A stretch of DNA of 64,000 bases from Candidatus Saccharimonadota bacterium (GTDB taxonomy: Bacteria > Patescibacteriota > Saccharimonadia > Saccharimonadales > Saccharimonadaceae), in contig JAUMZA010000001.1 in NCBI GenBank assembly GCA_030528355.1, positions 71,177 to 135,176 on the forward strand, given 5' to 3'. The translations under genes and the position numbers were made by a program. Under the pieces are notes generated by a model that did not search any database, was not told the origin of the DNA, and saw only the letters and a list, made by a program, of their open reading frames with translations. Of the stretch, positions 11,985-48,935 are shown piece after piece. How positions within the stretch are numbered: the first letter of the stretch is position 1; the number at the start of each line of letters is the position of its first letter.

Positions 11985-11994
11985 GAGGACTATC

Positions 11995-27953: not shown

Positions 27954-28804
27954 CGGTAATCATTTATTTCGTGCGAGCATACGCCTGAGCAAGCAGTGTG
28001 CTTGCAGTTCGGGTGTGCGAAAGGCTGGAATAATCAAAAACTCTGCGAGCAGTGCAATAATAAAAGCAGTAATTGGTGCCGTCGCAGACTCTAGTGCACC
28101 CCGCCAATCAAATTGTTAAACACAGCAAAAATAACCAAACCAAGCAAGCCTGGCACTGCCGCAATTGCTCTCCAAACTCCCTGTATGTCGATAAGCTTAT
28201 TAGTAAGCTCCGGGTCGTGTGCGATTTCTTTTTCAGGTATATCCAACCGCCACATATGTAGCGTTGCAAGCAACATTAGGACCGCTGCAATCACCAACGT
28301 CCAACCCATGCCAATCGATACTCCGCTTATAACCGAAGTCACAATAAATCCAATTCCATTAACTGCACCAACCATGCCGTTCGCCTTATCCCGTTCACCG
28401 GATGACACTAGTAACGTGACGGTAGTACTGAGTGCGACGTTTCGCATGTTACCAATCACCGCACCAATCAACATCACAATGCCAAATAGCCATAAAGTTG
28501 GGTCGCTTGCACTTGCCGGCTTACCTTCAAGCAATAGCCAATATGTCACCATACTTACACTAAATGCCACACTGGCAACCACGTTGGCAAGCAGCATTGC
28601 TGATTTTTTATAATGACGATCCACAAACGAACCAAACGCCAGCGAAGCAAACGAAGTAAGCAGCATATATGCACCACCCAACAACCCCGTCACCAACACT
28701 GATTGCGTTGCCAAATATAGCCAAAACACCAACGCAAACCACACATAGCCATTGGTAATGTTGCTAACTAAATTATTTGCGAGCACTTTATAAAATTGCT
28801 TCAT
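27954..28804 (-). pseudogene. MFS transporter, probably disrupted (N-terminal 6-TM half intact, apparent frameshift near 28090, truncated)
   Basis: ORF 28091..28804 encodes the N-terminal half with MFS motif A (GSFVDRHYKKS). After its TAG stop, a different frame continues with a TM-like stretch (APITAFIIALLAEFLIIPAF) for about 45 more codons. The total is well short of a 12-TM MFS protein. Confidence 0.4.
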
Positions 28805-31927: not shown

Positions 31928-32971
31928 TTAAAACTGCCCCAAAAAGTCCAATTTGCCACTTTCAAAGTGCCGCACGTCTTCGATGCCGTATTTCATCATC
32001 ACCAGGCGGTCGATGCCGCAGCCAAAGGCAAAGCCGGTGTATTCTGCCGGGTCGATATCAGCGGCACGCAGCACGTTCGGGTGGATCATACCGCAACCAA
32101 GTAGCTCAATCCAGCCTTCACCCGAGCATACTTTGCAATCTGGGTTTTTACCTTCACAAAACGGACAGCTCAGGGCAAACTCAAAGCTTGGTTCGGTGAA
32201 TGGAAAGTAAAACGGATTGACTCGCACGTCCAATTTTTTGCCGTAGTATTCTTGCAAAAATTCTTGCAGGGTGGCGATGAGATTGCCCACATTGACGCCT
32301 TTGGCCACATAGACGCCTTCCACTTGATAAAACGTATGTTCGTGCCGCGCGTCTAAATCCTCGTTGCGAAACACGCGGTCTGGCACGATGGCGGCAATTG
32401 CCTCGCCCTTCGCCAAATTCGCCGCATATTTTTTCAGCACGCGGTTTTGCATAGTCGAGGTATGCGCCGGGGCGATCAAGCGGTCGCCCCGTGCGTCGGT
32501 TTCTTCTGTCATAAAGGTGTCATAATCATCACGCGCCGGGTGGCCTTTGGGGAAATTCAGACTCTCAAACATATGGAACTGGTCGTCCATTTCACGCGAT
32601 TCTTCCACCACATAGCCCATGCGATTAAAGATATCAGAAATCCGCTCGATTTCGCACATCAAGGGATGAATCGTACCTTGCTCACTCGGCAGCAACGCCG
32701 GCACCGACGCATTGACGTCCATTGGTGCGGTTACATCAATTGGCGGAATATCTGCAGCTTGCAAGGTAGCTTCTCGTGTTGCAATCTCCTGCTCGAGCGA
32801 TTGCTTTAATGCATTCACCGCCTGACCAAATACGGCACGCTCTTCGTTAGAAAGCGTTGGAATAACTGCATATAATTCACGAATTTCTTTTGCCTTGAGT
32901 ATCTCTCTTGGATTGTCGAGCGTCGCCACTCGATCAAGCAATATCTGTCGCACCGATTCTATACGTTCCAT
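31928..32971 (-). CDS. pheS: Phenylalanine--tRNA ligase alpha subunit
   Basis: 347 aa with class II aaRS motifs (FRNE, GFAFGCGIDRL). Confidence 0.95.
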   Translation of the reverse strand: MERIESVRQILLDRVATLDNPREILKAKEIRELYAVIPTLSNEERAVFGQAVNALKQSLEQEIATREATLQAADIPPIDVTAPMDVNASVPALLPSEQGTIHPLMCEIERISDIFNRMGYVVEESREMDDQFHMFESLNFPKGHPARDDYDTFMTEETDARGDRLIAPAHTSTMQNRVLKKYAANLAKGEAIAAIVPDRVFRNEDLDARHEHTFYQVEGVYVAKGVNVGNLIATLQEFLQEYYGKKLDVRVNPFYFPFTEPSFEFALSCPFCEGKNPDCKVCSGEGWIELLGCGMIHPNVLRAADIDPAEYTGFAFGCGIDRLVMMKYGIEDVRHFESGKLDFLGQF

Positions 32972-32981
32972 TTTTTCTCCT

Positions 32982-33221
32982 TTAGCTTGAGCGTACTATT
33001 AGCCACACAATTACCCCAACGCTAACCACGCCGAGCACCAACCACACACCGAGCAAGCCCGATGACGACTTTGTGTTGTCCATATAATTAGATTGTTCTA
33101 CCATGTCAGTCGTTAGCTCTACCTCACCCCCGGTTTCGGGTGCATTTTTTGCTCGCAAATCAGCCGCAATTCGCTCTTGCAGCTTACTACGTTGTTCATC
33201 ACGTCGTACATATAATCCCAT
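32982..33221 (-). CDS. Small membrane protein (79 aa, C-terminal TM), immediately upstream of pheS
   Basis: Charged N-terminus plus the TM helix LLGVWLVLGVVSVGVIVWLIV, 10 nt upstream of the pheS start. Confidence 0.45.
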   Translation of the reverse strand: MGLYVRRDEQRSKLQERIAADLRAKNAPETGGEVELTTDMVEQSNYMDNTKSSSGLLGVWLVLGVVSVGVIVWLIVRSS

Positions 33222-33291
33222 ATCTCTAGTATACCACCTTTACTATATGCTATACTAAATGCATATTTCATTATATAAAGGAGGGAAATAT

Positions 33292-34176
33292 ATGGCGACC
33301 AAAAAAGCCACTTCGACGAAGAAGTCAAAAACGACAACCTCGAAGAAGCCAACTACTAAAAAAGTAGAAACAATCGTAACTACCGAAGTCAAGCCAGTGA
33401 AAAAACTTGCCAGCACCAAGCCTAAAAAGGCCGCTCTTTTCCAAAGTCGCTCAGCACTACTCGGTGCATCGATTGGTGAATTTATCGGCACCTTTATGCT
33501 TGTTGCGGTTGCACTTGCTACCCAGGCAAATCCACTCATTGTCAGCTTTGCACTTGTTGCTATTGTGCTTACCATTGGCACACTATCCGGTGCACACGTT
33601 AACCCACTAATCACCGTTGGTGCATGGGCAACTCGTAAAATTAGCCACCTTCGTGCTGGTGCATATCTGCTTGCACAAACACTCGGCGGTATGCTCGCAC
33701 TCGTTGTTATGAGCCGCTTTGCTGAACTAACAGCCGCCGCACAAGATGCCGCAGCTTCAAGCCACGCACTTGGCCTAAATGTACCACAGCTATTTAAGGT
33801 GCAGGCTATCAGCCCTGATACACCTAATATTTGGTATATCGTTTTTGCCGAATTGCTTGCAACTATCATCTTTGGTTTTGTAGTAGCAAGTGCCATGCGT
33901 GAAACCCGTGACCGAACCGCACAGGCCTTTACTATCGGCTTTGGCCTGCTGGTTGCACTGACTATTGCCGGCGGCGCAGCAGTATTTGCTGGCGGTGCAG
34001 TGTTGGCCAACCCAGCTGTTGCCCTTGGTGTACAAGCTATTGACTGGACCAACCTTAGCAACTTCTGGCCAATGCTTACCTATATCGCTATGCCACTATT
34101 CGGCGGTGTGGTTGGCTTCTTCTTGTACGACGTGCTTCGCACTGAGCGCGATGAAGACACTACCTTACAAAAGTAG
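33292..34176 (+). CDS. MIP/aquaporin-family channel with a ~50 aa lysine-rich N-terminal tail
   Basis: ATG at 33292 preceded by AAGGAGGG. The N-terminus reads MATKKATSTKKSKTTTSKKPTTKKVETIVTTEVKPVKKLASTKPKKAA. The first loop motif is GAHVNPLITVGAW (NPL in place of NPA) and the second is LANPAVALG. Confidence 0.85.
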   Translation: MATKKATSTKKSKTTTSKKPTTKKVETIVTTEVKPVKKLASTKPKKAALFQSRSALLGASIGEFIGTFMLVAVALATQANPLIVSFALVAIVLTIGTLSGAHVNPLITVGAWATRKISHLRAGAYLLAQTLGGMLALVVMSRFAELTAAAQDAAASSHALGLNVPQLFKVQAISPDTPNIWYIVFAELLATIIFGFVVASAMRETRDRTAQAFTIGFGLLVALTIAGGAAVFAGGAVLANPAVALGVQAIDWTNLSNFWPMLTYIAMPLFGGVVGFFLYDVLRTERDEDTTLQK

Positions 34177-34198
34177 TTTAGTACTATAAGAACCACAC

Positions 34199-34227
34199 AA
34201 AACCCCCACCTGCAGCGTGGGGGTTTT
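34199..34227. terminator. Bidirectional intrinsic terminator
   Basis: AAAACCCCCAC-CTGCAGC-GTGGGGGTTTT, between the convergent MIP channel gene and rmuC. Confidence 0.75.
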
Positions 34228-34250
34228 ATATAGTGGCGTGGCTGCATATT

Positions 34251-35321
34251 TTATTCGTCTTTTTGCGGACGATCGATCAACAAAGGCTCAACCGATGGCT
34301 CCTTACGAGCAATTTTCACCACGTCTTTATCAATCTTTTTCAGCTCTTTGTGGGCGTTGTTATAGTGATTAACTGTTGTCCCTAGACTATTCCCCAGCTT
34401 GTGCATCAACTGCTCGTACGCCGCAATATGACGGCCAAGCTGCCCAACCCGAGCCTGGATCTCTTTTGCCTGCGTTTCGATTTGCAGGCTTCGCAACCCC
34501 TGCAATACCGTTTGAAGATACGCCATAAAACTTGTTGGGCTTACAATAATCACCTTCTTTTCTTGAAAGGCATACTCCACTAAATCACGAGCACTCGCAC
34601 CTGTACCCACATCGCCAATTAATAAATCATAATATAGTGATTCGGACGGAATAAACATAAAGGCAAAATCCATCGTTTTTTCACCCGGACGAATATATTT
34701 GCTAGTTTCATCGATGCGGCCTTTTAGGTCTTGCCGAACCTTTGCAAGTAGCTGTGCTCGCTCAGCTTTTTGTTCTGTTGCGACCATACGGTTGTAGTTT
34801 TCAAGGCTAAATTTACTATCAACTGGCAACATTTTGCCACGCTCTAAAAAGATCACCGCATCGGCAATCACGCCATCCTTAAACTTATATTGCATTTGAA
34901 ATTGCTTGGGTGATAACACATTTTCGAGTACGCTCTGCAGGTAAAATTCACCAAACACACCCCGCTGTTTAGGGTTTTGCAACACATTCTGGAGTGTCTT
35001 CAAATCACCTGCCACGTCAATTACTCGTGCATTTGTTTCATCAAGCTTTGTCAGACGATTACTCACATCGGCAACCAATTTTGCACTTTGCGATAGCTGC
35101 TGCTGCATCGACAACTGCATTTGCTGCGTACCTTGCTCTAGCTTGTCGCCAACCCGTTCTTGCATGAGTTGCACCGCACGAGTTATCTCTACCAAATCGG
35201 CCTTGAGTAATTGTGCAGTATCAGATTTTTCGAGCTGCCTTAACCTTGTAAGTAATGTCATGGCAAATATAGCAAACCCAATTGCCATACAAAGCAGAAT
35301 AACCAATAGCATCATATCCAT
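34251..35321 (-). CDS. rmuC: DNA recombination protein RmuC
   Basis: 356 aa with an N-terminal TM helix, coiled-coil and a C-terminal RmuC nuclease-like domain. Confidence 0.8.
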   Translation of the reverse strand: MDMMLLVILLCMAIGFAIFAMTLLTRLRQLEKSDTAQLLKADLVEITRAVQLMQERVGDKLEQGTQQMQLSMQQQLSQSAKLVADVSNRLTKLDETNARVIDVAGDLKTLQNVLQNPKQRGVFGEFYLQSVLENVLSPKQFQMQYKFKDGVIADAVIFLERGKMLPVDSKFSLENYNRMVATEQKAERAQLLAKVRQDLKGRIDETSKYIRPGEKTMDFAFMFIPSESLYYDLLIGDVGTGASARDLVEYAFQEKKVIIVSPTSFMAYLQTVLQGLRSLQIETQAKEIQARVGQLGRHIAAYEQLMHKLGNSLGTTVNHYNNAHKELKKIDKDVVKIARKEPSVEPLLIDRPQKDE

Positions 35322-35348
35322 GCTTTTAGTATAGCAATCGTCTAAAAA

Positions 35349-35825
35349 CTACACAAATGCTGGTATGGCACGAGAAATAATCACAAGTACTGCAAAGATA
35401 AGCAACATTACTGGCACTTTGCGGATACGAACCACCCAGGCATATGCCACATAGGCAAGTGCGTACAGTATCGCCGTCCAGGTCACTGATGGCACAATCC
35501 CAGAGCCATACAGCCAGCTAGATAAGCCCCATAAACTAATTGCCGCACCAAGCGTAATAAGTACTGGGCGGTATACGCCTGATCGAACTAATGCAACCAC
35601 ACCAACCACTCCCATGACTACTGTAGCAATTTGCCCAGCATAATTTGCTGCTTCTACACACACTACACCATTGTTACACACCATATTTGCCAATACAAAA
35701 CGCTGCAAAGTATACGTAAGCATCCAGGCTACTACGCCCAATATTGCACCTACTAGTACAATACGAGCAAGCATGCTTTTATCTTGTTCGATAATTGGCG
35801 GCTGTGATTCGAATACATAGTCCAT
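35349..35825 (-). CDS. Hypothetical 4-TM membrane protein
   Basis: 158 aa with four hydrophobic helices. Confidence 0.5.
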   Translation of the reverse strand: MDYVFESQPPIIEQDKSMLARIVLVGAILGVVAWMLTYTLQRFVLANMVCNNGVVCVEAANYAGQIATVVMGVVGVVALVRSGVYRPVLITLGAAISLWGLSSWLYGSGIVPSVTWTAILYALAYVAYAWVVRIRKVPVMLLIFAVLVIISRAIPAFV

Positions 35826-35833
35826 ACTATGTA

Positions 35834-36319
35834 TTATTTTACACTACTTTTGTCTTTTTTGCAAGTATCATTCGTAAAATACCATAATGCACCCATGGCC
35901 GCCGCAAGTGTACCGCCAACTACATCAATCGGAGCATGCACCAAGGCAAGCACTCGCCCTACACATACTGCCAGTGCAATCACCACGCATACCACAGTAA
36001 GCCACCAGTGTTTTGTCATGTACCATACCGCCCACACCATTACCCATACAAAGAGTGCATGATCGGACGGGAAGCCTGGATTATTAAGATATGACGCCCC
36101 CGGATCAACATTCATAAGCTCAAACGGTCGCAGCTGTGTTGGCTGATAAATGACGCTCATAATCTTTGCCACCAAATAAGCGGTCAGCCCAGCTACCAGC
36201 ATGCGACTATAGACTGCAAACTTATGACGATTTGGCACACACCACACCGCAACTACCGCAGTTACAGCTGCAAGTACAAACACCAAACCGTCTGCCAAGA
36301 AAGAAATTATGATATCCAT
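35834..36319 (-). CDS. PAP2-family membrane phosphatase
   Basis: GFPSDHALF (PSGH motif) and RVLALVHAPIDVVGG (SRx5Hx3D motif). Confidence 0.7.
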   Translation of the reverse strand: MDIIISFLADGLVFVLAAVTAVVAVWCVPNRHKFAVYSRMLVAGLTAYLVAKIMSVIYQPTQLRPFELMNVDPGASYLNNPGFPSDHALFVWVMVWAVWYMTKHWWLTVVCVVIALAVCVGRVLALVHAPIDVVGGTLAAAMGALWYFTNDTCKKDKSSVK

Positions 36320-36336
36320 GTATTTAGTATACTACG

Positions 36337-37704
36337 TTATTTGCGTAAAATCACCACACCCACTATCAGCCATAGACATGAAATTGCTGCACATGCTGCA
36401 GTAAATACCGGCAGCCCAAATAGCATAATCATTGGCATAGAGAGAGCCGTCACCAAGCCACCTCCCATTAGTGGTTCAAATAGCAGTTGTTTATACCCGA
36501 AGCTTTCCGTTGCACCGGTTCGCTGTTTTGGATCGACAATATGGGCAAATAGCAGCCCGGTAGCCGTTGTGCCCATCGATTGTCCGATACTCACAATTGC
36601 ATTGGTAAACCAATACCGCTTAAACATATGTCGTGCTAGCACGGTAAAACAAAATAACACCCACAACACACCGCTGAGTGCCAAGATCAAAAATGCCAAG
36701 CCATCGGTTGATACAAATCCAAGCTTCATTGTACCGATTGCCGAGGTTACAAGCACCGCCAACACCGCACCACTCAATAATTCAACTAATGGCAGCGAAA
36801 TCACCAAACCAAGTTTCCGCCATATTAGCTGTGCAATCATGCCGCCAAACATACAAAACGTAAAGCGTGGCATGTAGCCAATAATCTTTACCTCGCCGCT
36901 TGCTCCCCATGTATGTAGCTCGAGCTGCAAAAGCAGCCAATGAATCAACCAGCCAATTAGCACGCTTATAATCAGCAATGCAATATGGCTCACAATTCGC
37001 CAAAACGCCAACTCCTTACGCAAGCTAAAGCCCGCTTTACGTAGCTGTGTAATAATTCGTCGATGATACACCATGCCTTGCACCTGTGCAAACGGACTAT
37101 GTGACTCAATCCATTTTCGCTTGCGGCCGTATGCAATCAACAAAAAGCCAACCGTAAGCGTTGCGAACAAGCTCGTGGTCGCCAGTGCCACCGCCATCTC
37201 TTGGCCGGATTGATAGTGAAACTCCTGAAATACCGGTACCATACCAGCCGCCGTGCCATGCCCACCTTCAAAGCTAATCTCTAGCAGAGCCGCCGCCAAA
37301 GGATGCGTCCCAAACACAGGCATCAGTACACACAAGACAACCAGGCCGCCAACTGCATAATACCCCCAGGCAATCATTTGCCCAAAGGCTGCCTGCGGTG
37401 CGGCCGCCTTCCATATTCCTCGCAGTGAAGTCAGCGGCTTTCCTAAAAATAATGCCCCAAAAATAACATTAATCAACAAGCCAGGCAGTGGCTCCCACGC
37501 CTTGTAGAGCGACTCGGCAATTGAGGAATCGGTTGGAAATCTCCCAAGTACCTGCGGACTGAGCAGTAATAAAATCAACCCTGCCGCAACACTGGCTGGC
37601 AAAAAACTGCGGCGAATACCTGGCAGCTGCACAAATAAATAGCCCACCGTTATCGCACCTATCAACACCAGCAGTGCCGAGGCGTATTCGTTTATCTGTT
37701 CCAT
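36337..37704 (-). CDS. Sodium/glutamate symporter GltS-family membrane transporter
   Basis: 455 aa polytopic protein. ISFEGGHGTAAG matches the GltS SGGHGT motif, and the C-terminal region is collinear with E. coli GltS. Confidence 0.55.
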   Translation of the reverse strand: MEQINEYASALLVLIGAITVGYLFVQLPGIRRSFLPASVAAGLILLLLSPQVLGRFPTDSSIAESLYKAWEPLPGLLINVIFGALFLGKPLTSLRGIWKAAAPQAAFGQMIAWGYYAVGGLVVLCVLMPVFGTHPLAAALLEISFEGGHGTAAGMVPVFQEFHYQSGQEMAVALATTSLFATLTVGFLLIAYGRKRKWIESHSPFAQVQGMVYHRRIITQLRKAGFSLRKELAFWRIVSHIALLIISVLIGWLIHWLLLQLELHTWGASGEVKIIGYMPRFTFCMFGGMIAQLIWRKLGLVISLPLVELLSGAVLAVLVTSAIGTMKLGFVSTDGLAFLILALSGVLWVLFCFTVLARHMFKRYWFTNAIVSIGQSMGTTATGLLFAHIVDPKQRTGATESFGYKQLLFEPLMGGGLVTALSMPMIMLFGLPVFTAACAAISCLWLIVGVVILRK

Positions 37705-37728
37705 CTGTTCTATTGTATCATGCTTATG

Positions 37729-38601
37729 CTACAATGCACGTGTACGTGCAGGCTTTTTTGCAGGCTGATGCACTGTTATCTGTGGAAACGGAATTTCTAT
37801 ACCAGCTGCATCAAATTCTTTTTTAAGACGGCGACGAAATTCACCAGCAATCGCCCACTGAGCAGCCGGCTTAACTTTACCCAGTGCTTTTATTCGCATG
37901 GCCGAGTCTTCAAATTCATCAAGTCGCAAGAAGGCAATGGGCTCAAAAATATCCTTCGCATACGCTTCATCTTGTGCCATAGTGGCACCAACCTGGTTGA
38001 TAATTTCTTCTACCCTATCAATATCTGCATCATACGATACGCCGACATTTACATTTACGTTGGCGTATTCGTAGCTCAAGTTGGTTACTGCCTGTGGTGT
38101 ACCATTACTAATAGTGTGTAAATTGCCATCTAAATCTCGCAGCTGCGTAATGCGGATTGTTAAACGCTCCACCGTGCCAGAAAGCGAAATGCCACCAATC
38201 TGCACACGGATAATATCACCAACTCGATATTGGTTTTCGCCAATAATACACAGCCCCGACACAAAATCCTTAATTGCACTTTGGGCACCAAAACCAAATA
38301 TTACACCAAATAAGCCAGCACCAGTGGCAAGGGTCGCCAAGTTTACGCCAAGCTGCTGCAATAATATCAAAATCACAATCACCCATAAAATAACCGCTGC
38401 TAGTGTCCGCAACACGTCTTTAAGGGTCTTTTCTCGCTTACGCTCATCATCTTCGCTCATGTAGCGATGCTGACGAACTGCCCGTTCGACGGCAATGCCA
38501 ATAATCGCACGTACTACTACGTGTGCAACCAGTGCAAATGTCATGGTGACAAGCAATTGCAATAATAGATTATCGGCGATTACCGTCGTGATTTCTTTCA
38601 T
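37729..38601 (-). CDS. mscS: Small-conductance mechanosensitive channel (MscS family)
   Basis: 290 aa with 3 TM helices followed by the MscS beta domain (GDIIRVQIGGISLSGTVERLTIRITQLRDLDGNLHTISN). Confidence 0.8.
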   Translation of the reverse strand: MKEITTVIADNLLLQLLVTMTFALVAHVVVRAIIGIAVERAVRQHRYMSEDDERKREKTLKDVLRTLAAVILWVIVILILLQQLGVNLATLATGAGLFGVIFGFGAQSAIKDFVSGLCIIGENQYRVGDIIRVQIGGISLSGTVERLTIRITQLRDLDGNLHTISNGTPQAVTNLSYEYANVNVNVGVSYDADIDRVEEIINQVGATMAQDEAYAKDIFEPIAFLRLDEFEDSAMRIKALGKVKPAAQWAIAGEFRRRLKKEFDAAGIEIPFPQITVHQPAKKPARTRAL

Positions 38602-38624
38602 AGACAGGCTACCAATATAGCAAA

Positions 38625-39056
38625 TTATTCACCAATGTGGTTTGTCTTGAAGCTAATATATGGCACATAAGTTTGCCACAGTGCAAGCTCTGTATTGCTC
38701 AACTTCATGGCCGCTTCTACCGCACCGGCAATCTTACTCTCTTCAAACTTTACCTTTTGCCCAACTTCTAGGACTGGCCAACCAGCTTGTTCTGAAAGTT
38801 TTGTTTCGATTGCAACAATGCGGGCATTGCCAATATTCTTTTTATGATTGATACCATAGGTTTGCACGGCTTTACGCACAAGTTGTGTATATGCATCACC
38901 TGGCTGTGCTACGTAACTATACATCTTTACATCTGGCTTTGCCTGATTCTGCTCCATTTTTTTGCCATCTTGGGCACTCGCCTGAGTGCTCATTGCGCAC
39001 ATCATTACCACCGCTACTGTCGCAATATACCCACCAATTACTCGGATACCTTTCAT
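38625..39056 (-). CDS. Secreted LysM-like domain protein
   Basis: Signal peptide MKGIRVIGGYIATVAVVMMCAMSTQASA followed by YSYVAQPGDAYTQLVRKA, which is LysM-like. Confidence 0.55.
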   Translation of the reverse strand: MKGIRVIGGYIATVAVVMMCAMSTQASAQDGKKMEQNQAKPDVKMYSYVAQPGDAYTQLVRKAVQTYGINHKKNIGNARIVAIETKLSEQAGWPVLEVGQKVKFEESKIAGAVEAAMKLSNTELALWQTYVPYISFKTNHIGE

Positions 39057-39157
39057 ATTCCCTCCTTGTTATGTATCTGTAGTGCTATAATACCATGTTC
39101 CCGCCATGGCTGCAAAACTATTTTTACCCACCACCATAACACCGACCACAAACTTGA

Positions 39158-40165
39158 TTAGCGTACCTTTATACTGCCATCAACCTTCGTCAGTAGCGGA
39201 TCAAGGAAGAATTCAACAATGCGGCGTTTGCCGGTGGTAATTTCGGCTGATACACTCATTCCTGGCAGCAACGTAAGCTCTGCCTGCTTTGAACTGGTTG
39301 CATTTTTGAGCTTAATTTTTGCTTTGTATACCAGACCTTTCTTTTCATCATGAATTGCATCCGGGCTAATCGTCTCTACCTCGCCTTCTAGATAGCCGTA
39401 ACGCTGAAACGGATACGTTGCTAGCTTCACCACCACCCGCTGCCCCTGCCCTAGCACGGCACTTTCTGCAGCGGCAATACGTTGCTCAAGCGACCCAAGT
39501 TCATTTTGTAAGCCAATCCTTTCAACGGGATTTGCTTGAGCTAGCTGCGATTCAAGCTCACGTTTGCGTTGCTGCAGCTGCTGCATATTCGCTTCTAGCC
39601 GCTGCTTGGTGTGCTGATTAAATTGCACTTGTTGCTGTTGCTGCGAAATTGCTCCGTGTAGCGTCTGCTGTCGAGCCTGTATCAATCCCTGGCGTGCCTG
39701 AGCAAATTCACGCAATACCGACTTTACTTCCTCTGGCAGTTCTGCCTGCGTAACAATATCATCCGCAACACCACCCACCGCCAGTCGCCGCAAAATATCA
39801 CGCTCCACCCGTGCCACGGCCACGCCTTGCACTAGCGTCATAACCTCCTTTTCGGAGGTGGTTTTATCCAGCTCAATCAACACATCACCTTTCTTCACCT
39901 CCTGGCCTTCACGGGTGTTGATTTTTGTCACCACACCGCTAATGGCCGGCTGAATTATTTTTGTGCTGCCTTCGGTTGAAATCCTACCATTCGCCACTGC
40001 TACAATATCAATCTGCCCAACATACGACCACACGCCAGCCACTACCAACAGTATCGTCACGAGCCAAATCACCATTGCACCACGCGGGGCAGCAGGCGTT
40101 TAGATAATCTCCTCGGCGGCTGGCAAAAATTCATACTGCAACCTGTCTTTCTTTAGCCAGCTCAT
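39158..40165 (-). pseudogene. HlyD-family periplasmic adaptor interrupted by an in-frame TAA (40100..40102)
   Basis: The upstream segment [21 protein letters not shown] (HlyD cytoplasmic N-terminus, SD AGGAGGTGA) is followed by TAA, then TPAAPRGA, then the ORF-track segment 39158..40075 (TM helix, lipoyl/coiled-coil, beta-barrel). All three parts are in the same frame. The ATG overlaps the stop of the upstream ABC fragment by 4 nt. Confidence 0.7.
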
Positions 40166-40701
40166 ACCTCACCTCCTAGCTGCTGCTTGTGTAAATACGC
40201 ATACAGCCCGTTCTTTTTGAGCAGTACCTGCGGCGTGCCGTATTCCACCAACTGGCCACGATCAATCGCCATAATTTTATCGACTGATTTTAATGTCGAA
40301 AGCCGATGGGCAATAATAATCACGGTACGCCCAGCAGTAATATGTGTGAGATTTTGCTGAATGACATTTTCTGATTCATAATCCAGCGCCGACGTAGCTT
40401 CATCAAAAATGAGAATCTTTGGATCGTGTAGCAATGCCCTGGCAATGGCAATACGCTGCTTTTGCCCGCCGCTTAAACCTTCGCCTTTTTCGCCCACCAT
40501 CGTATCGTAACCTTCGGGTAGCTCAGAAATAAATTCATGTGCCCCAGCAATTTTCGCCACCCGCACGATGTCGTCCATACTACTACTTGGCACATGTACG
40601 GCGATATTATCCCGAATCGATGCATTAAACAAAAAGTTTTCTTGCAAGACCACGCCAATTTGCCGTCGCAGCCAGCTTGGATCGGTCGTCGCAATATCCA
40701 C
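40162..40701 (-). pseudogene. Truncated ABC exporter: C-terminal part of the NBD only (Walker A, TMD and any peptidase domain missing)
   Basis: 179 aa carrying the signature [16 protein letters not shown], Walker [13 protein letters not shown] and the H-loop IIIAHRLS, but no Walker A. The gene breaks off at about 40700, where an unrelated recombinase fragment begins on the other strand. Confidence 0.7.
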
Positions 40702-41319
40702 AGCTGGACATATTATCGATGTTCGCGTAAGAACAGGTTCATTAAATGCACCGAGCCGGCAATCCGCGAAAAAGATTTACTACCGCAGATTTCGGCGTTG
40801 CTTGGCGATTATCAGATCTCTGATGAAGCTTACGATTATATATCCAGTAGAATAACGCAAGACGAAAAAGCCGAAAATGTGGACAGTATGTCTATTGTGG
40901 CAAATTTGAAAAATAAAATTGACAGTCTGAACGGTAAACAAAAGATTTTGCTTGATAGCTACCTAGATCAAGACATTGACCGTCAAACTTTTCTAGCTAA
41001 AAAATCGGAGATTTTGAGCGAAAAGAAAAGTTTGGAGGAAAAATTGACGAACCTCACAGCTAACCATAATGCTTGGATCGAACCTATGCGAAAATGGCTA
41101 GAAATAGCAAAATCTATCTGTAATTTGCGTAAAATCGATGACTTTAGCGGGCAAAAAGTTGTTTTGCTTGAAATCTTTGGATCGAACCTCGCAATGCACA
41201 ACAAAACCCTCACCATTCTCAACCACCAAGACAAGTTTGGAGTTGGCTCAAAAACTGCTTTCCGGAAGGGGGCGGAAAGCAGTTTTTTGCCTTTGGCAAG
41301 AATTAAAAAATACAAATAG
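40693..41319 (+). pseudogene. C-terminal fragment of a large serine recombinase (zinc-ribbon remnant plus coiled-coil/DUF4368-like tail); catalytic domain absent
   Basis: [14 protein letters not shown], then ...[20 protein letters not shown]...NLKNKIDSLNGKQKILLDSYLDQDIDRQTFLAKKSEILSEKKSLEEKL. The ORF-track segment 40537..40692 is an antisense artefact over the ABC fragment. Confidence 0.5.
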
Positions 41320-41363
41320 AAAAGTCGCCATTTCAGGCGACGATTCTGAAAAAATCCTTATTA

Positions 41364-41438
41364 TGGCTGGGATGGAGGGATTCGAACCCCCGAATGGCGG
41401 GACCAGAACCCGCTGCCTTACCACTTGGCGACATCCCA
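41364..41438 (-). tRNA. tRNA-Gln (anticodon CUG)
   Basis: 75 nt cloverleaf TGGGATGTCGCCAAGTGGTAAGGCAGCGGGTTCTGGTCCCGCCATTCGGGGGTTCGAATCCCTCCATCCCAGCCA. It has a U1:A72 pair, G73 and an encoded CCA, and is collinear with E. coli tRNA-Gln. Confidence 0.85.
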
Positions 41439-41464
41439 TCACCTTTAATCACTATACCAAACTA

Positions 41465-41905
41465 CTACGTTTTCTTCAAGCGGTGTGACGAGCGATATAC
41501 CACCGCCATAATCAGCATAGTGATCACACACACCACTGCCACAGAAGTTGCGTGGTCTGTAAAGTACACGCCAAACATACCAGCCTTTGCCCCAGCACCC
41601 CACGCAGTTACTAACATCGCCAACCATCCAACCGGTAGCAGCATAGTGCATACACGAGCAGCCTTCTGCAAACCGCCACTGGTTTTAATTCGTAAAATAT
41701 ACGGTAGACTAAAAACAGCCATAGCATTTACCATCAGCAGTAATGGCAGCCACCATGCTATCTGCCTTACTTCAGGCAATTCGGCCAATTTATCTAACGA
41801 AAATAACTGGGCCAAAGTTACCACGACCACCCCTGCTGCACATAGGGTAGCTCTCCAGCCAATTGGCGGTTTGTAGCAACGCTTCATATCACTACTATGC
41901 CGCAT
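41465..41905 (-). CDS. Hypothetical 4-TM membrane protein
   Basis: 146 aa hydrophobic ORF immediately downstream of tRNA-Gln. Confidence 0.5.
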   Translation of the reverse strand: MRHSSDMKRCYKPPIGWRATLCAAGVVVVTLAQLFSLDKLAELPEVRQIAWWLPLLLMVNAMAVFSLPYILRIKTSGGLQKAARVCTMLLPVGWLAMLVTAWGAGAKAGMFGVYFTDHATSVAVVCVITMLIMAVVYRSSHRLKKT

Positions 41906-42081
41906 AACCCACTACTGGTCAATACCTCCACACTAAACGCTGTTGTATTTTTGTATTATATGCTTGTGCTTTTTACATTTTACCCCTATAGTAAAAGCTA
42001 GCGAAACATTACAAAAAACAAACACTTTTTACAAACTTGTTTTGGGTAGTGGGTTTCGCTCTACGATATACCCACCACAAC

Positions 42082-42120
42082 AAACCCCAGCTTCTTACCT
42101 GCTGGGGTTTCGTCTTTTTA
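42082..42120 (+). terminator. Intrinsic terminator-like hairpin best oriented for the plus strand
   Basis: AAACCCCAGC-TTCTTACC-TGCTGGGGTTT followed by CGTCTTTTTATTG. There is no plus-strand CDS upstream; the trmD stop lies at its 3' flank on the minus strand. Confidence 0.5.
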
Positions 42121-42783
42121 TTGTTGCGAAAACTTTTTTGACTGTGCGGCTCGCCATTTGGCAATCTCACCATGGTGCCCGCTCAGTAGTACATCTGGCA
42201 CCTTTAGGCCCCTAAATTCAGCTGGGCGCGTATATTGCGGAAACTCTAATGTTTCGCCATCGCTAAAACTTTCGATTATAGTACTTTCTTCACCGCCAAG
42301 TACACCAGGAATGAGTCGCACAATACTATCGATAATCGTCATAGCAGGCAGCTCACCGCCAGTCAACACAAAATCACCAATACTCAACTGCTGGTCTACT
42401 AACGTAAGAATCCTTTCGTCATACCCTTCATACCGGCCACAAATAAAAATATAACCACAATCTTCTTCGAGTGCATATTGCTGTGCCAGGCCCTGCTGCC
42501 ACCGCACCCCACGTGGTGTCATGAGCAGCACTTTTGCTGTCGGATCAATCGATTTGGCACATTCAACCGCAGCAAATAATGGCTCGGGCTTTAGCAACAT
42601 GCCATCACCGCCGCCATACGGCGTATCATCCACTTGCTTGCGAGGCCCAATCCCAAACTGCCGCAAATCAATTGCCGAAAGTTCAGCCAGGCCCTCTTTT
42701 TGTGCTTTCCACATCATACTACTCTCAAACACCCCTTTCATCATTTCGGGGAAGAGTGTAATTACTTGAAATTTTCTCATCAT
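42118..42783 (-). CDS. trmD: tRNA (guanine37-N1)-methyltransferase
   Basis: TrmD SPOUT motifs (ITLFPEM, DDTPYGGGDGMLLKPEP). Likely start ATG at 42783, with TATAAT at 42788..42793 only 4 nt upstream (leaderless). The ORF-track start at 42855 over-extends. Confidence 0.9.
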   Translation of the reverse strand: MMRKFQVITLFPEMMKGVFESSMMWKAQKEGLAELSAIDLRQFGIGPRKQVDDTPYGGGDGMLLKPEPLFAAVECAKSIDPTAKVLLMTPRGVRWQQGLAQQYALEEDCGYIFICGRYEGYDERILTLVDQQLSIGDFVLTGGELPAMTIIDSIVRLIPGVLGGEESTIIESFSDGETLEFPQYTRPAEFRGLKVPDVLLSGHHGEIAKWRAAQSKKFSQQ

Positions 42784-42924
42784 TCTTATTATAGCATCGA
42801 AAACCACAAAACCACCCCGTAAAGGAGTGGTTCTGCAGACATATAAGGCTCTCAACTCTTATAAAAGTTGCTCGCATAGAGCTTTTTGTTCTCGCAGTTC
42901 AAGTTATTGTCTGAACTGTTTTTA

Positions 42925-43293
42925 TTATATATCTAAATCATCTAATTCTGCAAGCTCTTTTCGGGCTGAATCTGCAAAGCTTGAGCGGTTTTCCACAGCT
43001 TCCCCTGTAGATTCATCCACAACTTGTTCGGAGCTGCCAGTTAGACCATCATTATTGACAATCTTTAGGTTGTAGCGAGCATCATTCTTTGTACCCAGAG
43101 CACGCAGCAGCGTACGTAAGCTTTGCGCAGTCACACCACGCTTACCAATTACACGGCCGAGATCCTCTGGATTAACTGTAAGGCTAAGCAGTACACCTTT
43201 TTCATCAATCACTCGCTCTACCACCACATCGTCAGGGTGATTCACTAGTGACTTTACGATATATTCTACAAATTGCTGATCTATTGTTGACAT
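42925..43293 (-). CDS. KH-domain RNA-binding protein (YlqC/UPF0109-like)
   Basis: 122 aa with the KH motif VIGKRGVTAQSLRTLL. Confidence 0.8.
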   Translation of the reverse strand: MSTIDQQFVEYIVKSLVNHPDDVVVERVIDEKGVLLSLTVNPEDLGRVIGKRGVTAQSLRTLLRALGTKNDARYNLKIVNNDGLTGSSEQVVDESTGEAVENRSSFADSARKELAELDDLDI

Positions 43294-43424
43294 TCTGCCC
43301 TCCTGTCATTGCAGTGTTGGCTACTCGCCAATCACCTCTCTTATCGTATTTTTATTGTATCATGAATTATGATTTGCTTCATCACGATATAAAAACTGCC
43401 CTCACAAGGTAGGGCAGTCGTGTA

Positions 43425-43766
43425 CTATTCTTCTGTTGAAGCGTCTTCTTTTGGCTGATTTTTACGCAGCTTTTCTACGTTCTTAATCGACTTTTGCTTG
43501 GTTGCAGTAGGCTCTTTTACCCACTTTGGTAGCTTTACGCCATTAGCTTTTAGCAGCTTTACGACACGTGGTGATGGCTGTGCACCGTTATCAAGGTATT
43601 TTTGTGCCGCTTTAGTCTGTAGTGACACCTCTTTGGTGTGTGGATTGTAGCTACCTACATACGCAACCACACGACCACTTGATGGATGGCGGTGAGCTTC
43701 CTGAACTGCCAAACGGTATACTGGGTAACCCTTACGACCCAAACGTTGCAAACGAATTGCGAGCAT
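43425..43766 (-). CDS. rpsP: 30S ribosomal protein S16 with basic C-terminal extension
   Basis: N-terminus MLAIRLQRLGRKGYPVYRLAV. Confidence 0.9.
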   Translation of the reverse strand: MLAIRLQRLGRKGYPVYRLAVQEAHRHPSSGRVVAYVGSYNPHTKEVSLQTKAAQKYLDNGAQPSPRVVKLLKANGVKLPKWVKEPTATKQKSIKNVEKLRKNQPKEDASTEE

Positions 43767-43877
43767 AGATTATAACTTCCTTCTCTCTTACTCTTAACTA
43801 TTACATTCAATATCTCTAGCCATTTTACCGCTTTTTGTTGCGATTGTCAATCTGTTTTTGGGGATTAACTTAGCTGG

Positions 43878-44594
43878 CTACTTCTCATCACGAGCCTTAT
43901 ACGCCGCTAGTGCTGCCCGTGCTGCCTGCTGCTGCCCGGCTTGCTTGCTTGGGCCGCTTCCCTTGCCCATCAATTCAGACCCAACAAACACACCAATTGT
44001 AAAAACCTTATCGTGGTCTGGGCCGACTTCGTCAAGCACCTTATACTGCGGTGTAAAGCCATCTACTCGCTGGCTCACCTCTTGCAAGTGGGATTTTGGA
44101 TCACGCCATGAGCCATCTTCCAAAATCTTATCCAACTTACTTAAGATATGCGTTGCGATAAATTTTTGTGCTGCATCGTAGCCCTTCTCAAGATAGATTG
44201 CCCCAATCACCGCTTCAAATGCATTGGCTAAAATCTGCTGACGAGCGCGATCGCTCCCCTGCTTTTCGCCACGACTCATTCGCAGAAGCGGTTCGTACCC
44301 TAATTTATCGCCAGCCGCTCCGATACTTTCAGTTCGCACCAGTGCCGCCCGCCAACTCGTTAAAATGCCTTCCGGCTCAGTATAGTTGCTAAACAAAAAA
44401 TCCGTCACCGCCAGCTCCAGCACGGCATCGCCCAAAAACTCAAGCCGCTCGTTATGTTCGCTGACACTTTTTTTATGCTCATTCACGTAGCTACGGTGCG
44501 TCAATGCCGTAATTAGCGTATCAATATTTTCAAATTCAAAACCCAATTTTGTGCGAGCAAATTCTTGATACGGCGCCTTGTTCATGCCACTCAT
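43878..44594 (-). CDS. rnc: Ribonuclease III
   Basis: ERLEFLGDAVLEL signature plus a C-terminal dsRBD. Confidence 0.9.
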   Translation of the reverse strand: MSGMNKAPYQEFARTKLGFEFENIDTLITALTHRSYVNEHKKSVSEHNERLEFLGDAVLELAVTDFLFSNYTEPEGILTSWRAALVRTESIGAAGDKLGYEPLLRMSRGEKQGSDRARQQILANAFEAVIGAIYLEKGYDAAQKFIATHILSKLDKILEDGSWRDPKSHLQEVSQRVDGFTPQYKVLDEVGPDHDKVFTIGVFVGSELMGKGSGPSKQAGQQQAARAALAAYKARDEK

Positions 44595-45089
44595 TTATAA
44601 GTTCTCCTGACGGATTCGCTTCATCGCAAGCAGCATCAACTTGCCAATATCCTCGTACTCAATCACATCAAGTGCTTCATGAAAACTAAACCATTTAATG
44701 CCATTCATCCATTCTTCTTTCTTGATTGCATCCGTATCACCTTTGGCACGCACCAAATAAATTTGCGTGGTCATTAGCACCAATTTATCAATCCGGCGAT
44801 AGCGAAAATGGATCTTACCGAGCCAGCTTAAAACATCAACGTCATGCAGCCCCGCCTCTTCACCAATTTCACGCTTGGCGGTTGCTTGGGCGGTTTCACC
44901 TTCTTCGATATGCCCTTTTGGAATCGTCCAACGGTCTTTCGCATCCTGAATCAACAAAATCTCAACCTGGCCATCTTTATTGCGACGAAACACAATACCA
45001 CCTGCCGTCGGTTCGCGCACAATCTCTTGGATGGATGGCTTTTTGCGAAAGTACTTCTTGAATTTATCAAACTTTGGAGTCGTCGCCAT
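44595..45089 (-). CDS. Nudix hydrolase
   Basis: Nudix box GHIEEGETAQATAKREIGEEAGL. Confidence 0.8.
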   Translation of the reverse strand: MATTPKFDKFKKYFRKKPSIQEIVREPTAGGIVFRRNKDGQVEILLIQDAKDRWTIPKGHIEEGETAQATAKREIGEEAGLHDVDVLSWLGKIHFRYRRIDKLVLMTTQIYLVRAKGDTDAIKKEEWMNGIKWFSFHEALDVIEYEDIGKLMLLAMKRIRQENL

Positions 45090-45525
45090 CGTTCTTGTCC
45101 TCTACAAGTGTTCGATACGCAGTACCCAGTACCCCGTTAATGAACTTACTTGAATTATCAGAACCGAACGATTTGGCAAGCTCTACCGCCTCGTTAATGG
45201 CCACCCGTGCCGGCACATCGTCTGCACGGTGCAATAACTCGTACAGACCCATACGCAAAATATTACGATCAATCCGTGCAACCTGAGCAAGCGGCCAATC
45301 CGGAGCCAGCGGCTGCAGTATTTCATCAAGTTCAGTCGTTTTTTCAATCACGCCTTGTACCAAAGTACTAATAAACGCAGTGTCGTCGATATCCTCTTTA
45401 TAGCGTTCGAGGTTTCGCTCCATTACTTCTTTCACATCAACAGGAAGTTCCGGCGAATGGCGAAATTCATATTCGTAGAGAGTTTGCAGTGCAACGATTC
45501 TGCCTAGGTGGCGATTTGAAGCCAT
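45067..45525 (-). CDS. nusB: Transcription antitermination factor NusB
   Basis: 152 aa all-helical NusB-like sequence. Overlaps the Nudix gene by 23 nt. Confidence 0.8.
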   Translation of the reverse strand: MASNRHLGRIVALQTLYEYEFRHSPELPVDVKEVMERNLERYKEDIDDTAFISTLVQGVIEKTTELDEILQPLAPDWPLAQVARIDRNILRMGLYELLHRADDVPARVAINEAVELAKSFGSDNSSKFINGVLGTAYRTLVEDKNDGDDSKV

Positions 45526-45580
45526 ACTATTCGGTTCTTTCTTACTATTATGTTTATCTATCTAAAAGCTGCGTAAACTA

Positions 45581-45733
45581 TTACGCAGCAACTTTCTTTT
45601 TACCAGTTTCACGCTTGGTGGTGTGAACTTTTACCGGTGACGTAGCATTAACACGACGTGCAAGCTTAAGCACAAGGTGGCTACGGCGCAAACCTGTTTT
45701 ACGAGGGCTGCTTTGCTTTTTAGGCTGTGCCAT
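45581..45733 (-). CDS. rpmF: 50S ribosomal protein L32 (not in ORF track, 50 aa)
   Basis: MAQPKKQSSPRKTGLRRSHLVLKLARRVNATSPVKVHTTKRETGKKKVAA matches the L32 N-terminal pattern (MAxPKR..S..R...RRSH). SD is AAGGAGTATTC. A terminator hairpin GCTGCGTAA-ACTA-TTACGCAGC spans the stop codon. Confidence 0.65.
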   Translation of the reverse strand: MAQPKKQSSPRKTGLRRSHLVLKLARRVNATSPVKVHTTKRETGKKKVAA

Positions 45734-45769
45734 GAGTAGAATACTCCTTACGTTTCTTTAAACAATTCA

Positions 45770-45868
45770 TTACACACTATACAGGGTTTTATGAAAAAAA
45801 TCAATAACTACCAGTAAAAGCGGTAATTTTTATGTATTGACAAATAGAAATTTTTATGCTAATATGTA
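45770..45868. promoter_or_regulatory. Divergent promoters: TTGATT-17-TATAGT (minus, rpmF) and TTGACA-17-TAATAT (plus, 45873 gene)
   Basis: Both hexamer pairs are visible in the intergenic sequence with 17-nt spacers. Confidence 0.5.
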
Positions 45869-45872
45869 AATT

Positions 45873-46424
45873 ATGAACGAACGAAAAAAACCCACCCCGT
45901 ATCAACATAAAGAAACCACTTTTAGCCAGGATCCGATCCACGTAACACGCCGCCGGGCAGCAGCCCTACTTGGTGCCGGTGCAGTTGCTGCTGGATTACT
46001 AGCCGGCTGCAACACTTTTGGCGAAAAAGAAGCCTCTGGTAAAAAAATTACCGCCACCAAGCTTGATAATTACGTCAATGATAAAACCCCGCTCGAAAGC
46101 GTGCAACTTGAAAATGGTGCAATTCTTCGTGAGGATCCGTTTGTTGAAGACCTGTCCCACACAACCCCGGGCAATAGGCTTGCAAAAGTTGAGCTAGGCG
46201 ATTTGTCCGAGCAGCATTCAATCAATATTGACTTTCAGGATGATGATAATACCTACATCCACGTTCGCAATCGTGAAAGCGGCACCCCAGAAACCTGGAT
46301 TGGCTTGCCAGAAGATGCCGTAAAGGAAGCACTACCAGGCATCGCAAGAAAACTCACCAAAGACGGCGATGATATTATCTGGGTAAACACTCAGAAAGCC
46401 GACTACACAAAAGCCGATAGATAG
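45873..46424 (+). CDS. Hypothetical Tat-signal lipoprotein
   Basis: Twin-arginine motif TRRRAAALLGAGAVAAGLLAGC with an LLAGC lipobox. Confidence 0.6.
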   Translation: MNERKKPTPYQHKETTFSQDPIHVTRRRAAALLGAGAVAAGLLAGCNTFGEKEASGKKITATKLDNYVNDKTPLESVQLENGAILREDPFVEDLSHTTPGNRLAKVELGDLSEQHSINIDFQDDDNTYIHVRNRESGTPETWIGLPEDAVKEALPGIARKLTKDGDDIIWVNTQKADYTKADR

Positions 46425-46427
46425 CTC

Positions 46428-47141
46428 TTACTTGACTACAATATTCAGCAGCCGGTCAGGGACATAAATCACCTTGGCCGGTTGTTTGTCGTCAATAAAG
46501 CTCATGACATGCTCATTCGCATACACCAACGCTTCGACCGCCGCCTGATCAGCACCCTTTTCGCATGCAAGCCGTGCACGCACTTTGCCGTTTACCTGCA
46601 CCACGATCGTTACTTCGTCCGCCACCAACAGCGACTCATCCCATTCTGGCCAATGATCCACATGAATCGTATCAGCATGACCAAGCTGATGCCACAGCTC
46701 TTCGGTAATGTGTGGCGCAAACGGTGCGAGCACCATCAACAAGTTTTCGATCATCTGCTGCCAAGCTGGGGATTTGACAATACCATGGGCGTCTTTTAGC
46801 TTGTACAGTGCATTCACCGTTTCCATCATGCTTGATACTGCCGTGTTGAACTTTTCATCTTCAATATCTTGCGTAATTTTTTTCGCAATGCCATGTGCCA
46901 GGCGGGCAAGCTCTTTGGTGACCGCTTCGTTTGCGTCGCCATTATCAGCCGCCAGATACTCTTGCACAAGTGTCCACACACGATTTAAGAAACGATAGGT
47001 GCCCGGCACGCCACGGGTATCCCACGGGGCATCCTGATCATACGGTGCGATAAACATTTCATACAGGCGCAAGCTGTCCGCCCCGTAACCACTATCCATA
47101 ATCTCCATTGGGTCAATCACATTACCCTTTGATTTACTCAT
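46428..47141 (-). CDS. leuS: Leucine--tRNA ligase, C-terminal piece (starts at the KMSKS motif; anticodon-binding and C-terminal domains)
   Basis: 237 aa beginning MSKSKGNVIDP (the KMSKS motif). Its ATG is 8 codons downstream of, and in frame with, the stop of the N-terminal piece. Confidence 0.85.
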   Translation of the reverse strand: MSKSKGNVIDPMEIMDSGYGADSLRLYEMFIAPYDQDAPWDTRGVPGTYRFLNRVWTLVQEYLAADNGDANEAVTKELARLAHGIAKKITQDIEDEKFNTAVSSMMETVNALYKLKDAHGIVKSPAWQQMIENLLMVLAPFAPHITEELWHQLGHADTIHVDHWPEWDESLLVADEVTIVVQVNGKVRARLACEKGADQAAVEALVYANEHVMSFIDDKQPAKVIYVPDRLLNIVVK

Positions 47142-47165
47142 CTTTTCACCATCTGGTGCAATATT

Positions 47166-48935
47166 TTAGGCTTTGTACATAATCCGCTTGACGGGCTCGG
47201 GGGTTGGCACCAGGCCAAGATTATAGAACAACCGCAACAAAACACGACTGTAAAGTAGATGGGCCACGGCATGATCAGCACCATTGTAATAGTTCACCGG
47301 CATCCAGTGATTGATACGCTCCGGATCCCATGCCTGGTTGTCATTAGTTGGATCGAGATAACGCAGGAAGTACCAGCTACTGCAGGCGTAGCCATCGAGT
47401 GTGTCGGTTTCACGGCGGCCTTCGTGCCAAGCCTTGCCCGCTGGTTTTGGTTCGGTGATTGGCACCGTTTCGCCGGTTTCGATGTTCACCCATACACGCA
47501 CCCAGTCATCTACTTCGGCTAACACCGAGGTGTGGCCGCCTTTTGGCTTAAAATCTTCTACGTCTGGCAAAAGTACCGGCAGGCAACTATCTGCCACGGC
47601 AATTGGCGTGTAGCCATCGACATAGACCATTGGGATTGGCGCACCCCAGTAGCGCTGGCGAGAAATCAGCCAGTCGCGCATTTTGTAGGTAATTTTACTC
47701 TCACCAACACCCTGCTGCTCGAGCCACGCCACTACTTCTTCACGGGCTTGTTCGCTACGCATGCCATCAAAATGGCCGCTATTAATCATCACTCCTTCAC
47801 CGCCATAAAAACCTGGCTCGCTGTTGTCTTCTGGCTTTTCAATCACCGTAATAATTGGTAAGTCAAACTTTTTAGCAAAGGCGTAATCACGTTCATCATG
47901 CCCCGGCACCGCCATCACTGCACCGGTGCCATAACTACCTAGCACATAATCAGCAATCCAAATTGGCATACGATCGCCGGTAGCAGGATTGATGGCGTAG
48001 CTGCCTGTAAAGACGCCCGTTTTTTCGCGAGAATCACTCATACGCTCCACATCGGAACGACGTGCGGCGGCAGCGATATATTCTTCAACCGCTAGCTTCG
48101 TATCACTGTTTACTAGTTGTGGCACCATTTCATGCTCCGGCGCAAGCACCAAAAAGGCAGCACCAAACAGCGTGTCTGGGCGGGTGGTAAAGACTTTGAT
48201 ACAAGCATCCGCACCTTTTACCTCAAACGTCACCTCTGCACCCTGCGAACGGCCGATCCAGTTTTTTTGCATGGTTTTGACCATATCAGTCCAATCGAGG
48301 TCGTCGGTTGCTTCGAGTATTTCATCAGCATAGGCGGTAATCTTAAAGAACCATTGGTTGAGCTTCTTTTTTGTGACCGGGTTGCCGCAACGCCAACACT
48401 TGCCGCCTTCAACCTGTTCGTTCGCCAGCACCGTGCTATCGGTTTCGCACCACCACTGTGGCTGCTCTTTGCGATAGGCTAAATCATGCTTGTATAGTTG
48501 CGTAAAAATCCATTGCGTCCATTTATAATATTCTGGATCGGCGGTTGAAATTTCTTTGCTCCAATCATAACTAAAACCAAGCCGCTTTAGCTGCGTTTTA
48601 AAGTGCACCTTGGCGTCATCGTGTGCCTGGCGCGGCGTTTTTCCAACCTTAATAGCGTAGTTTTCAACCGGCAAGCCAAAGCTATCCCAGCCAATTGGAT
48701 GATAGGCATTATAACCCTGCTGCCGCTTGGCACGCACTTTCACATCCGAAAACTGAAATGTACGGCCGTGGCCAATATGAATCCCCGCCCCGGTAATGCC
48801 CGAAAGCATGCTAAAGCCATAGTATTTTTTACGTGTAGTGTCGGCAAGATCAACTTTGTAGGTTTCGTCTTGCTCCCATTGCTGCTGCCATTTCTGTTCG
48901 ATTTCGGTTGGATTGTAACGCTTCATAGCTACCAT
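47166..48935 (-). CDS. leuS: Leucine--tRNA ligase, N-terminal piece (HIGH motif, CP1 editing domain, most of catalytic core)
   Basis: 589 aa. N-terminus MKRYNPTEIEQKWQQQW, HIGH motif GAGIHIGHGRT and the editing domain. It ends ...RIMYKA at a TAA (47166..47168), 7 codons before the conserved KMSKS. Confidence 0.9.
   Translation of the reverse strand: MVAMKRYNPTEIEQKWQQQWEQDETYKVDLADTTRKKYYGFSMLSGITGAGIHIGHGRTFQFSDVKVRAKRQQGYNAYHPIGWDSFGLPVENYAIKVGKTPRQAHDDAKVHFKTQLKRLGFSYDWSKEISTADPEYYKWTQWIFTQLYKHDLAYRKEQPQWWCETDSTVLANEQVEGGKCWRCGNPVTKKKLNQWFFKITAYADEILEATDDLDWTDMVKTMQKNWIGRSQGAEVTFEVKGADACIKVFTTRPDTLFGAAFLVLAPEHEMVPQLVNSDTKLAVEEYIAAAARRSDVERMSDSREKTGVFTGSYAINPATGDRMPIWIADYVLGSYGTGAVMAVPGHDERDYAFAKKFDLPIITVIEKPEDNSEPGFYGGEGVMINSGHFDGMRSEQAREEVVAWLEQQGVGESKITYKMRDWLISRQRYWGAPIPMVYVDGYTPIAVADSCLPVLLPDVEDFKPKGGHTSVLAEVDDWVRVWVNIETGETVPITEPKPAGKAWHEGRRETDTLDGYACSSWYFLRYLDPTNDNQAWDPERINHWMPVNYYNGADHAVAHLLYSRVLLRLFYNLGLVPTPEPVKRIMYKA

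Follow-up and report, generated by a model that had tools for sequence, protein, structure and literature searches.

An apparently interrupted leucyl-tRNA synthetase gene

We analysed a stretch of 64,000 nucleotides (called the window below) from a Candidatus Saccharimonadota metagenome-assembled genome (MAG; GCA_030528355.1, contig JAUMZA010000001.1). Its minus strand carries leuS, the gene of a bacterial-type leucyl-tRNA synthetase (LeuRS), and the reading frame of this gene is interrupted by a TAA codon. The features concerned are the following:

46428..48935, minus strand: leuS, 835 codons plus terminator, identified by translation, Pfam and homologues
47166..48935, minus strand: apparent N-terminal ORF of 589 aa, very probably an artefact of a false stop
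47166..47168, minus strand: in-frame TAA at leuS codon 590, read as TAC (Tyr) in contigs L167, L168, L169 and L170
46428..47141, minus strand: apparent C-terminal ORF of 237 aa that starts at the Met of KMSKS, very probably an artefact of the same false stop
47160..47243: patch of 15 window-specific substitutions without indels, relative to same-strain and sister-strain contigs

In translation, the 589-aa ORF ends in ...VKRIMYKA before the TAA. Seven in-frame codons follow (NIAPDGE-K), and an ATG at 47141 then opens the 237-aa ORF (MSKSKGNVIDP...), which ends at 46428. The Pfam families detected in leuS are tRNA-synt_1, tRNA-synt_1_2 (editing) and Anticodon_1. The class I catalytic core lies in the first piece together with the LeuRS editing domain; the end of the core falls in the second piece, which also has the anticodon-binding domain. 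PF00133 and PF09334 match both pieces, PF13603 (CP1 editing, E = 4e-68) spans LeuRS residues 224-406, and PF08264 (anticodon-binding) matches in the C-terminal piece. The class Ia motifs IHIGHG and KMSKSKGN can be read in the translation, so that the HIGH-type motif, KMSKS loop, CP1 editing domain and anticodon-binding domain of a bacterial-type class Ia LeuRS are all present. These results reproduced the coordinates and ORFs of the original prediction, made from the sequence alone, that leuS is cut by an in-frame TAA seven codons before KMSKS, and the Pfam matches agreed with its assignment of the HIGH core and editing domain to the 589-aa piece. Exact look-up in the protein collection returned no record for the 589-aa or the 237-aa product, and none for two versions of the upstream 370/348-aa neighbour. 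Unlike both leuS ORF products, the 183-aa neighbour protein was present in six Logan contigs.

Conservation of leuS among Saccharibacteria

We compared the joined LeuRS with its best 120 database homologues, all from Saccharibacteria (TM7); the named matches belong to Candidatus Nanosynbacter and Candidatus Saccharibacteria. A comparison with relatives had been proposed as a check on whether the gene is contiguous or split, and the answer was uniform: all 120 are contiguous single proteins (828-942 aa). The closest, P0001, has 835 aa and is 96% identical. P0001 and the Candidatus Nanosynbacter protein P0079 share the length and domain order of the window's LeuRS (HIGH core, CP1 editing, KMSKS, anticodon-binding), and the gene neighbourhood is also the same, with a Mur ligase upstream and NusB, NUDIX, RNase III and S16 downstream. 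In both the window and these relatives a short APDGEK linker replaces the leucine-specific domain; in the alignment this linker alone precedes KMSKS, and the core helix is separated from KMSKS by ...IMAPDGEKMSKS... only. The difference between these contiguous enzymes and the window is confined to the 84-nt patch with its TAA. At the column of the stop, 98% of the 120 homologues have Tyr, in the context ...KRMMYNAYIMAPDGEKMSKSKGN...

We then scored as deviating each position at which the window residue occurs in none of the 120 homologues while at least 95% of them agree. The joined LeuRS has 13 such positions, of which 11 fall within codons 565-592; the remaining 807 residues hold only two. 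A similar clustering was seen at the nucleotide level, where 18 leuS nucleotides are unique to the window in a comparison with 20 Saccharibacteria leuS genes and 12 of the 18 lie within codons 565-591. Every one of these unique nucleotides with a determinable ancestral state is a transversion. For neighbouring genes with comparably close homologues, deviations in invariant columns were absent or few, scattered and mostly conservative. Scans of genome contigs and metagenome contigs gave a best match of 79% amino acid identity, which is too distant to settle the stop.

Independent assemblies of the same strain

Contigs of the same strain were reached by looking up neighbouring proteins (the 305-aa HlyD and the 183-aa leuS neighbour). 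Two contigs from run SRR24915846 match the window up to the patch at 100% over ~15 kb: L166 corresponds to window positions 32216..41396 with 100% identity, and L168 to 41367..47159 with no mismatch in 5793 nt. Within the patch, L168 differs from the window at 11 sites in 47160..47229, where the contig ends; it encodes ...FYKLGLVPTPEPFKRMMYNAYIMAPDGEK... there and has TAC at the window's TAA. This independent same-strain assembly (L166 and L168) does not have the stop. The MAG may derive from a run other than SRR24915846.

Three contigs from other runs (L167, L169 and L170) are ~98-99% identical to the window and cross the entire patch region, where 15 sites in 47160..47243 set them apart from the window. 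Because L168 stops inside the patch, the evidence for the last four sites comes from these sister strains only. In each of the four contigs codon 590 is TAC and the translation gives the family consensus HLLYSRFWMRFFYKLGLVPTPEPFKRMMYNAYIMAPDGEKMSKS, and the leuS frames of the Logan contigs that cross the patch continue without a stop for 411-414 codons until the contigs end.

The substituted sites are 47160, 47164, 47166, 47172, 47181, 47184, 47192, 47193, 47202, 47220, 47229, 47232, 47237, 47239 and 47243, so that ~18% of the patch bases are changed. All 15 substitutions are transversions (plus strand, true to window: four C>A, four A>C, two G>T, two C>G, one G>C, one A>T and one T>A); another transversion, at 47268, may belong to the patch as well. 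Four changes are synonymous and the others are F565V, W566L, M567L, F569L, K572N, F582V, M585I, N588K, Y590*, I591N and M592I. These 11 fall on invariant or near-invariant residues (at least 98% of the 120 homologues), which means that 10 such residues are lost in addition to the one turned into a stop. Elsewhere, the divergence looks very different. Between the window and L167, 15 of 15 differences inside the patch are transversions, whereas 47 of 53 outside it (89%) are transitions (Fisher p = 1.2e-10), and 24 of the 25 differences between the window and L173 are transitions. The patch keeps codon-level homology and has no indels; we therefore read it as the ancestral sequence overlaid with substitution noise, neither foreign DNA nor frameshifted sequence.

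A second in-frame stop, in a type I secretion locus

The window has another gene with an in-frame TAA followed by A:

39158..40165, minus strand: hlyD, with in-frame TAA-A at 40102..40100
40165..40701, minus strand: ABC gene upstream of hlyD, a C-terminal fragment of the ATPase domain only

The hlyD stop replaces an invariant Glu (IIETPAAP; GAA to TAA), and the 305-aa truncated product is annotated by NCBI on a 135-kb MAG contig (P0122, MDO4684172.1). Relative to 446-aa homologues, hlyD also has an in-frame deletion of 111 codons between two QGQ repeats. A sister strain (P0241, 335 aa) has the deletion with Glu in place of the stop. The ABC fragment adjoins an ORF with a weak match to a recombinase zinc ribbon. 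Unlike the leuS stop, the hlyD stop is reproduced base for base in L166. With a nonsense codon and a deletion in hlyD and a fragmentary ABC gene, all matched at 100% by L166, the type I secretion locus (39158..40701, minus strand) is genuinely decaying, and its stop is unrelated to the leuS artefact.

Divergent leuS stretches in other assemblies

Two other assemblies have unusual sequence in the same part of leuS. In L001 (SRR26448210), which has the closest intact homologue, most of leuS is ~98% identical to the window, and ~230 nt at 2670..2900 (leuS codons ~535-610 of P0001; FWTRFFYKLGLISSPEPFKRMMYNAFILAP...) form a much more divergent tract. This tract looks like recombination from another strain, and a tract of this type may account for assemblers struggling in this region of leuS.

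The other case is the 'complete genome' of Candidatus Minimicrobia vallesae IHU2 (L026, NZ_CP076459.1, ~11560..12040), in which leuS is also broken. Here a stretch of ~480 nt (codons ~525-690) spans KMSKS and breaks the reading frame, with 25-30% mismatches and many indels relative to ~95%-identical genomes (L008-L011); it looks like unpolished long-read sequence. Both this stretch and the window's patch are short, highly divergent segments that break the frame of an otherwise clean essential gene. The stretch in L026 is longer and has many indels and transitions, whereas the window's patch consists of transversions only and has no indels. The overlap with the same part of leuS may be coincidence or may point to a systematic coverage problem there.

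Origin of the leuS stop

We consider it very probable (roughly 93%) that the leuS TAA arose as an artefact of base calling, consensus building or assembly in this MAG contig. This was the last of three explanations offered by the original prediction, and it is the one borne out by the independent same-strain assembly, which reads TAC and the consensus protein through the patch. The comparisons show a patch whose substitution spectrum is non-biological and which that assembly lacks. In our view, the stop is thereby shown to be foreign to the organism as well as assemblies alone allow. We propose that the stretch 47160..47243 was built from low-fidelity sequence, and that one of its 15 wrong bases converted TAC (Tyr590) to TAA. 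The source would most likely be error-rich read ends at a low-coverage point or in a strain-variation bubble, which is suggested by the end of L168 inside the patch and by the divergent tract of L001 over the same part of leuS. Illumina channel cross-talk and oxidative damage typically leave a bias between A and C and between G and T, and its occurrence in the patch suggests Illumina low-quality calls or oxidative damage to the template as the technical cause. With the patch corrected, leuS reads as a single gene, and the real organism would have one ordinary contiguous LeuRS of 835 aa. On these sequence comparisons, we conclude that the split is not a real biological feature. The garbled stretch in the Candidatus Minimicrobia vallesae gene weighs somewhat against an artefact, as its overlap with the patch might point to a systematic property of the region and not to a pure accident.

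A functional two-polypeptide enzyme, with the 589-aa piece ending at UAA and the 237-aa piece re-initiated at the Met of KMSKS as in the alpha/beta LeuRS of Aquifex aeolicus, would mean that heterodimeric LeuRS had arisen independently a second time, in this case in an ultra-reduced CPR bacterium. The halves of the Aquifex enzyme are the products of two separate genes, and both retain the conserved residues. The apparent break in the window does fall within the stretch of primary structure that holds the Aquifex split, just N-terminal of the KMSKS loop and just before the APDGEK linker that holds the position of the leucine-specific domain (PMC3643597). To this extent the prediction of a shared split point stood. 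However, Aquifex LeuRS is split within one of the largest leucine-specific domains (PMC3643597), and the enzyme encoded here has no such domain. An ATG preceded by the purine-rich GGTGA downstream of the stop could favour re-initiation, and GGTGA had been proposed as a possible Shine-Dalgarno sequence; it corresponds to the conserved D-G-E codons of every intact homologue and, together with the ATG (DGEKM), carries no independent signal. Moreover, none of the 120 best homologues is split, and the N-terminal piece would terminate in catalytic-core residues that the family keeps invariant and that are mutated here (F565V, W566L and others), so that conserved residues are not retained in both polypeptides. 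Nor is the break seen in independent assemblies or relatives: L167-L170 read TAC in an open frame, L168 of the same strain among them. The window's 'split' thus differs from that of Aquifex in being one irreproducible stop within one gene, flanked by destroyed conserved residues. With contiguous homologues, 10 further residue losses, no leucine-specific domain and TAC in L168, the Aquifex-like option of the prediction was not upheld, and we regard it as extremely unlikely.

We give next to no weight to its remaining option, in which programmed or leaky readthrough of UAA, or a reassignment of TAA, would yield a full-length LeuRS. The in-frame TAA-A of hlyD would be a second instance, but it lies in a locus with other disabling lesions. 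The shared context that had been pointed out is indeed there, with TAA followed by A at 40102..40100, and is best put down to chance, as TAA-A is the commonest stop context in the window (12 of 55 genes). TAA is not depleted but is the main terminator, ending 32 of the 55 window genes, and the four tRNAs found in the window (Gln-CTG, Ala-GGC, Arg-TCT and Gly-GCC) include no suppressor with a UUA anticodon. Nor is the leuS stop conserved in relatives; it is absent from the same-strain and sister-strain contigs.

It is very unlikely, although less so than either of these options, that the patch is a real, locally hypermutated and inactivated leuS allele present in some cells, which the assembler followed while the intact allele seen in L168 sustains the population. 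A bubble between two alleles could account for the break of L168 inside the patch, and the hlyD nonsense codon, reproduced by the independent assembly, indicates that the strain carries genuine lesions. Against this, 15 transversions without a transition in 84 nt match no known in vivo mutational process at such density, nor is there strand coordination among the changed bases. LeuRS is an essential enzyme of a ~0.7-Mb genome, yet 10 invariant or near-invariant residues are destroyed besides the stop, and the mere two deviations in the other 807 residues give no sign of relaxed selection. A related and highly improbable case is an allele in part of the population that arose by an unknown dense, transversion-only mutagenesis, possibly at a hotspot shared with Candidatus Minimicrobia vallesae, and that is either dead or encodes a two-piece LeuRS. 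Both the spectrum and the density of the substitutions in the patch, which strike invariant sites, are unlike natural divergence. As the changes are transversions only, affect ~18% of 84 nt without indels, destroy invariant residues and are absent from the same strain, we attribute the patch to none of natural divergence, relaxed selection, recombination or known targeted mutagenesis, and retain a local assembly or consensus error as the explanation.

Several specific candidates were also tried and rejected. A pair of compensating frameshifts was ruled out by the absence of indels and the retained codon-level homology. For mutagenesis of the diversity-generating retroelement (DGR) type, no second copy of the patch that could serve as a template repeat was detected in the window, and the changed bases are adenine-specific on neither strand. 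Import of a divergent allele by recombination is at odds with the patch's local synonymous codons, which are retained, and with its amino acids, which occur in no homologue. A pseudogene was rejected because the rest of leuS is almost without such deviations and the same-strain contig is intact. A generally poor assembly does not fit the ~15 kb of neighbourhood that matches Logan contigs perfectly or the neighbouring genes, which are nearly free of deviations.

The case is a caution that a 'split essential gene' in a MAG can mimic the Aquifex alpha/beta LeuRS and vanish once the same strain's independent assembly is checked. It also provides a recipe for spotting such artefacts without reads: changes that are clustered, are all transversions and affect invariant residues.

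Other gene structures in the window and in relatives

In contrast to the false split of leuS, the window contains a split that appears genuine and is a well-known natural one. The transketolase at 8283..10132 (minus strand) is encoded as two overlapping ORFs, a TPP-binding N-terminal part (285 aa) and a Pyr/C-terminal part (331 aa). An MFS transporter ORF of 237 aa at 28091..28804 (minus strand) covers positions 7-218 of the 347-position MFS_1 profile; it is probably the remnant of a truncated gene, as only 214 nt separate it from the next gene. Among the relatives, the LeuRS encoded in L002 (3001..5829) and L003 (P0002, 942 aa) is 91% identical to that of the window and has an insertion of ~107 aa with a weak ASCH-domain match at the start of the CP1/editing region, which is absent in the window and in other relatives. 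Directly downstream of enolase, at 21462..23117 (plus strand), the window encodes a 551-aa protein in which a D-2-hydroxyacid dehydrogenase domain is fused to a histidine-phosphatase (phosphoglycerate-mutase-like) domain.
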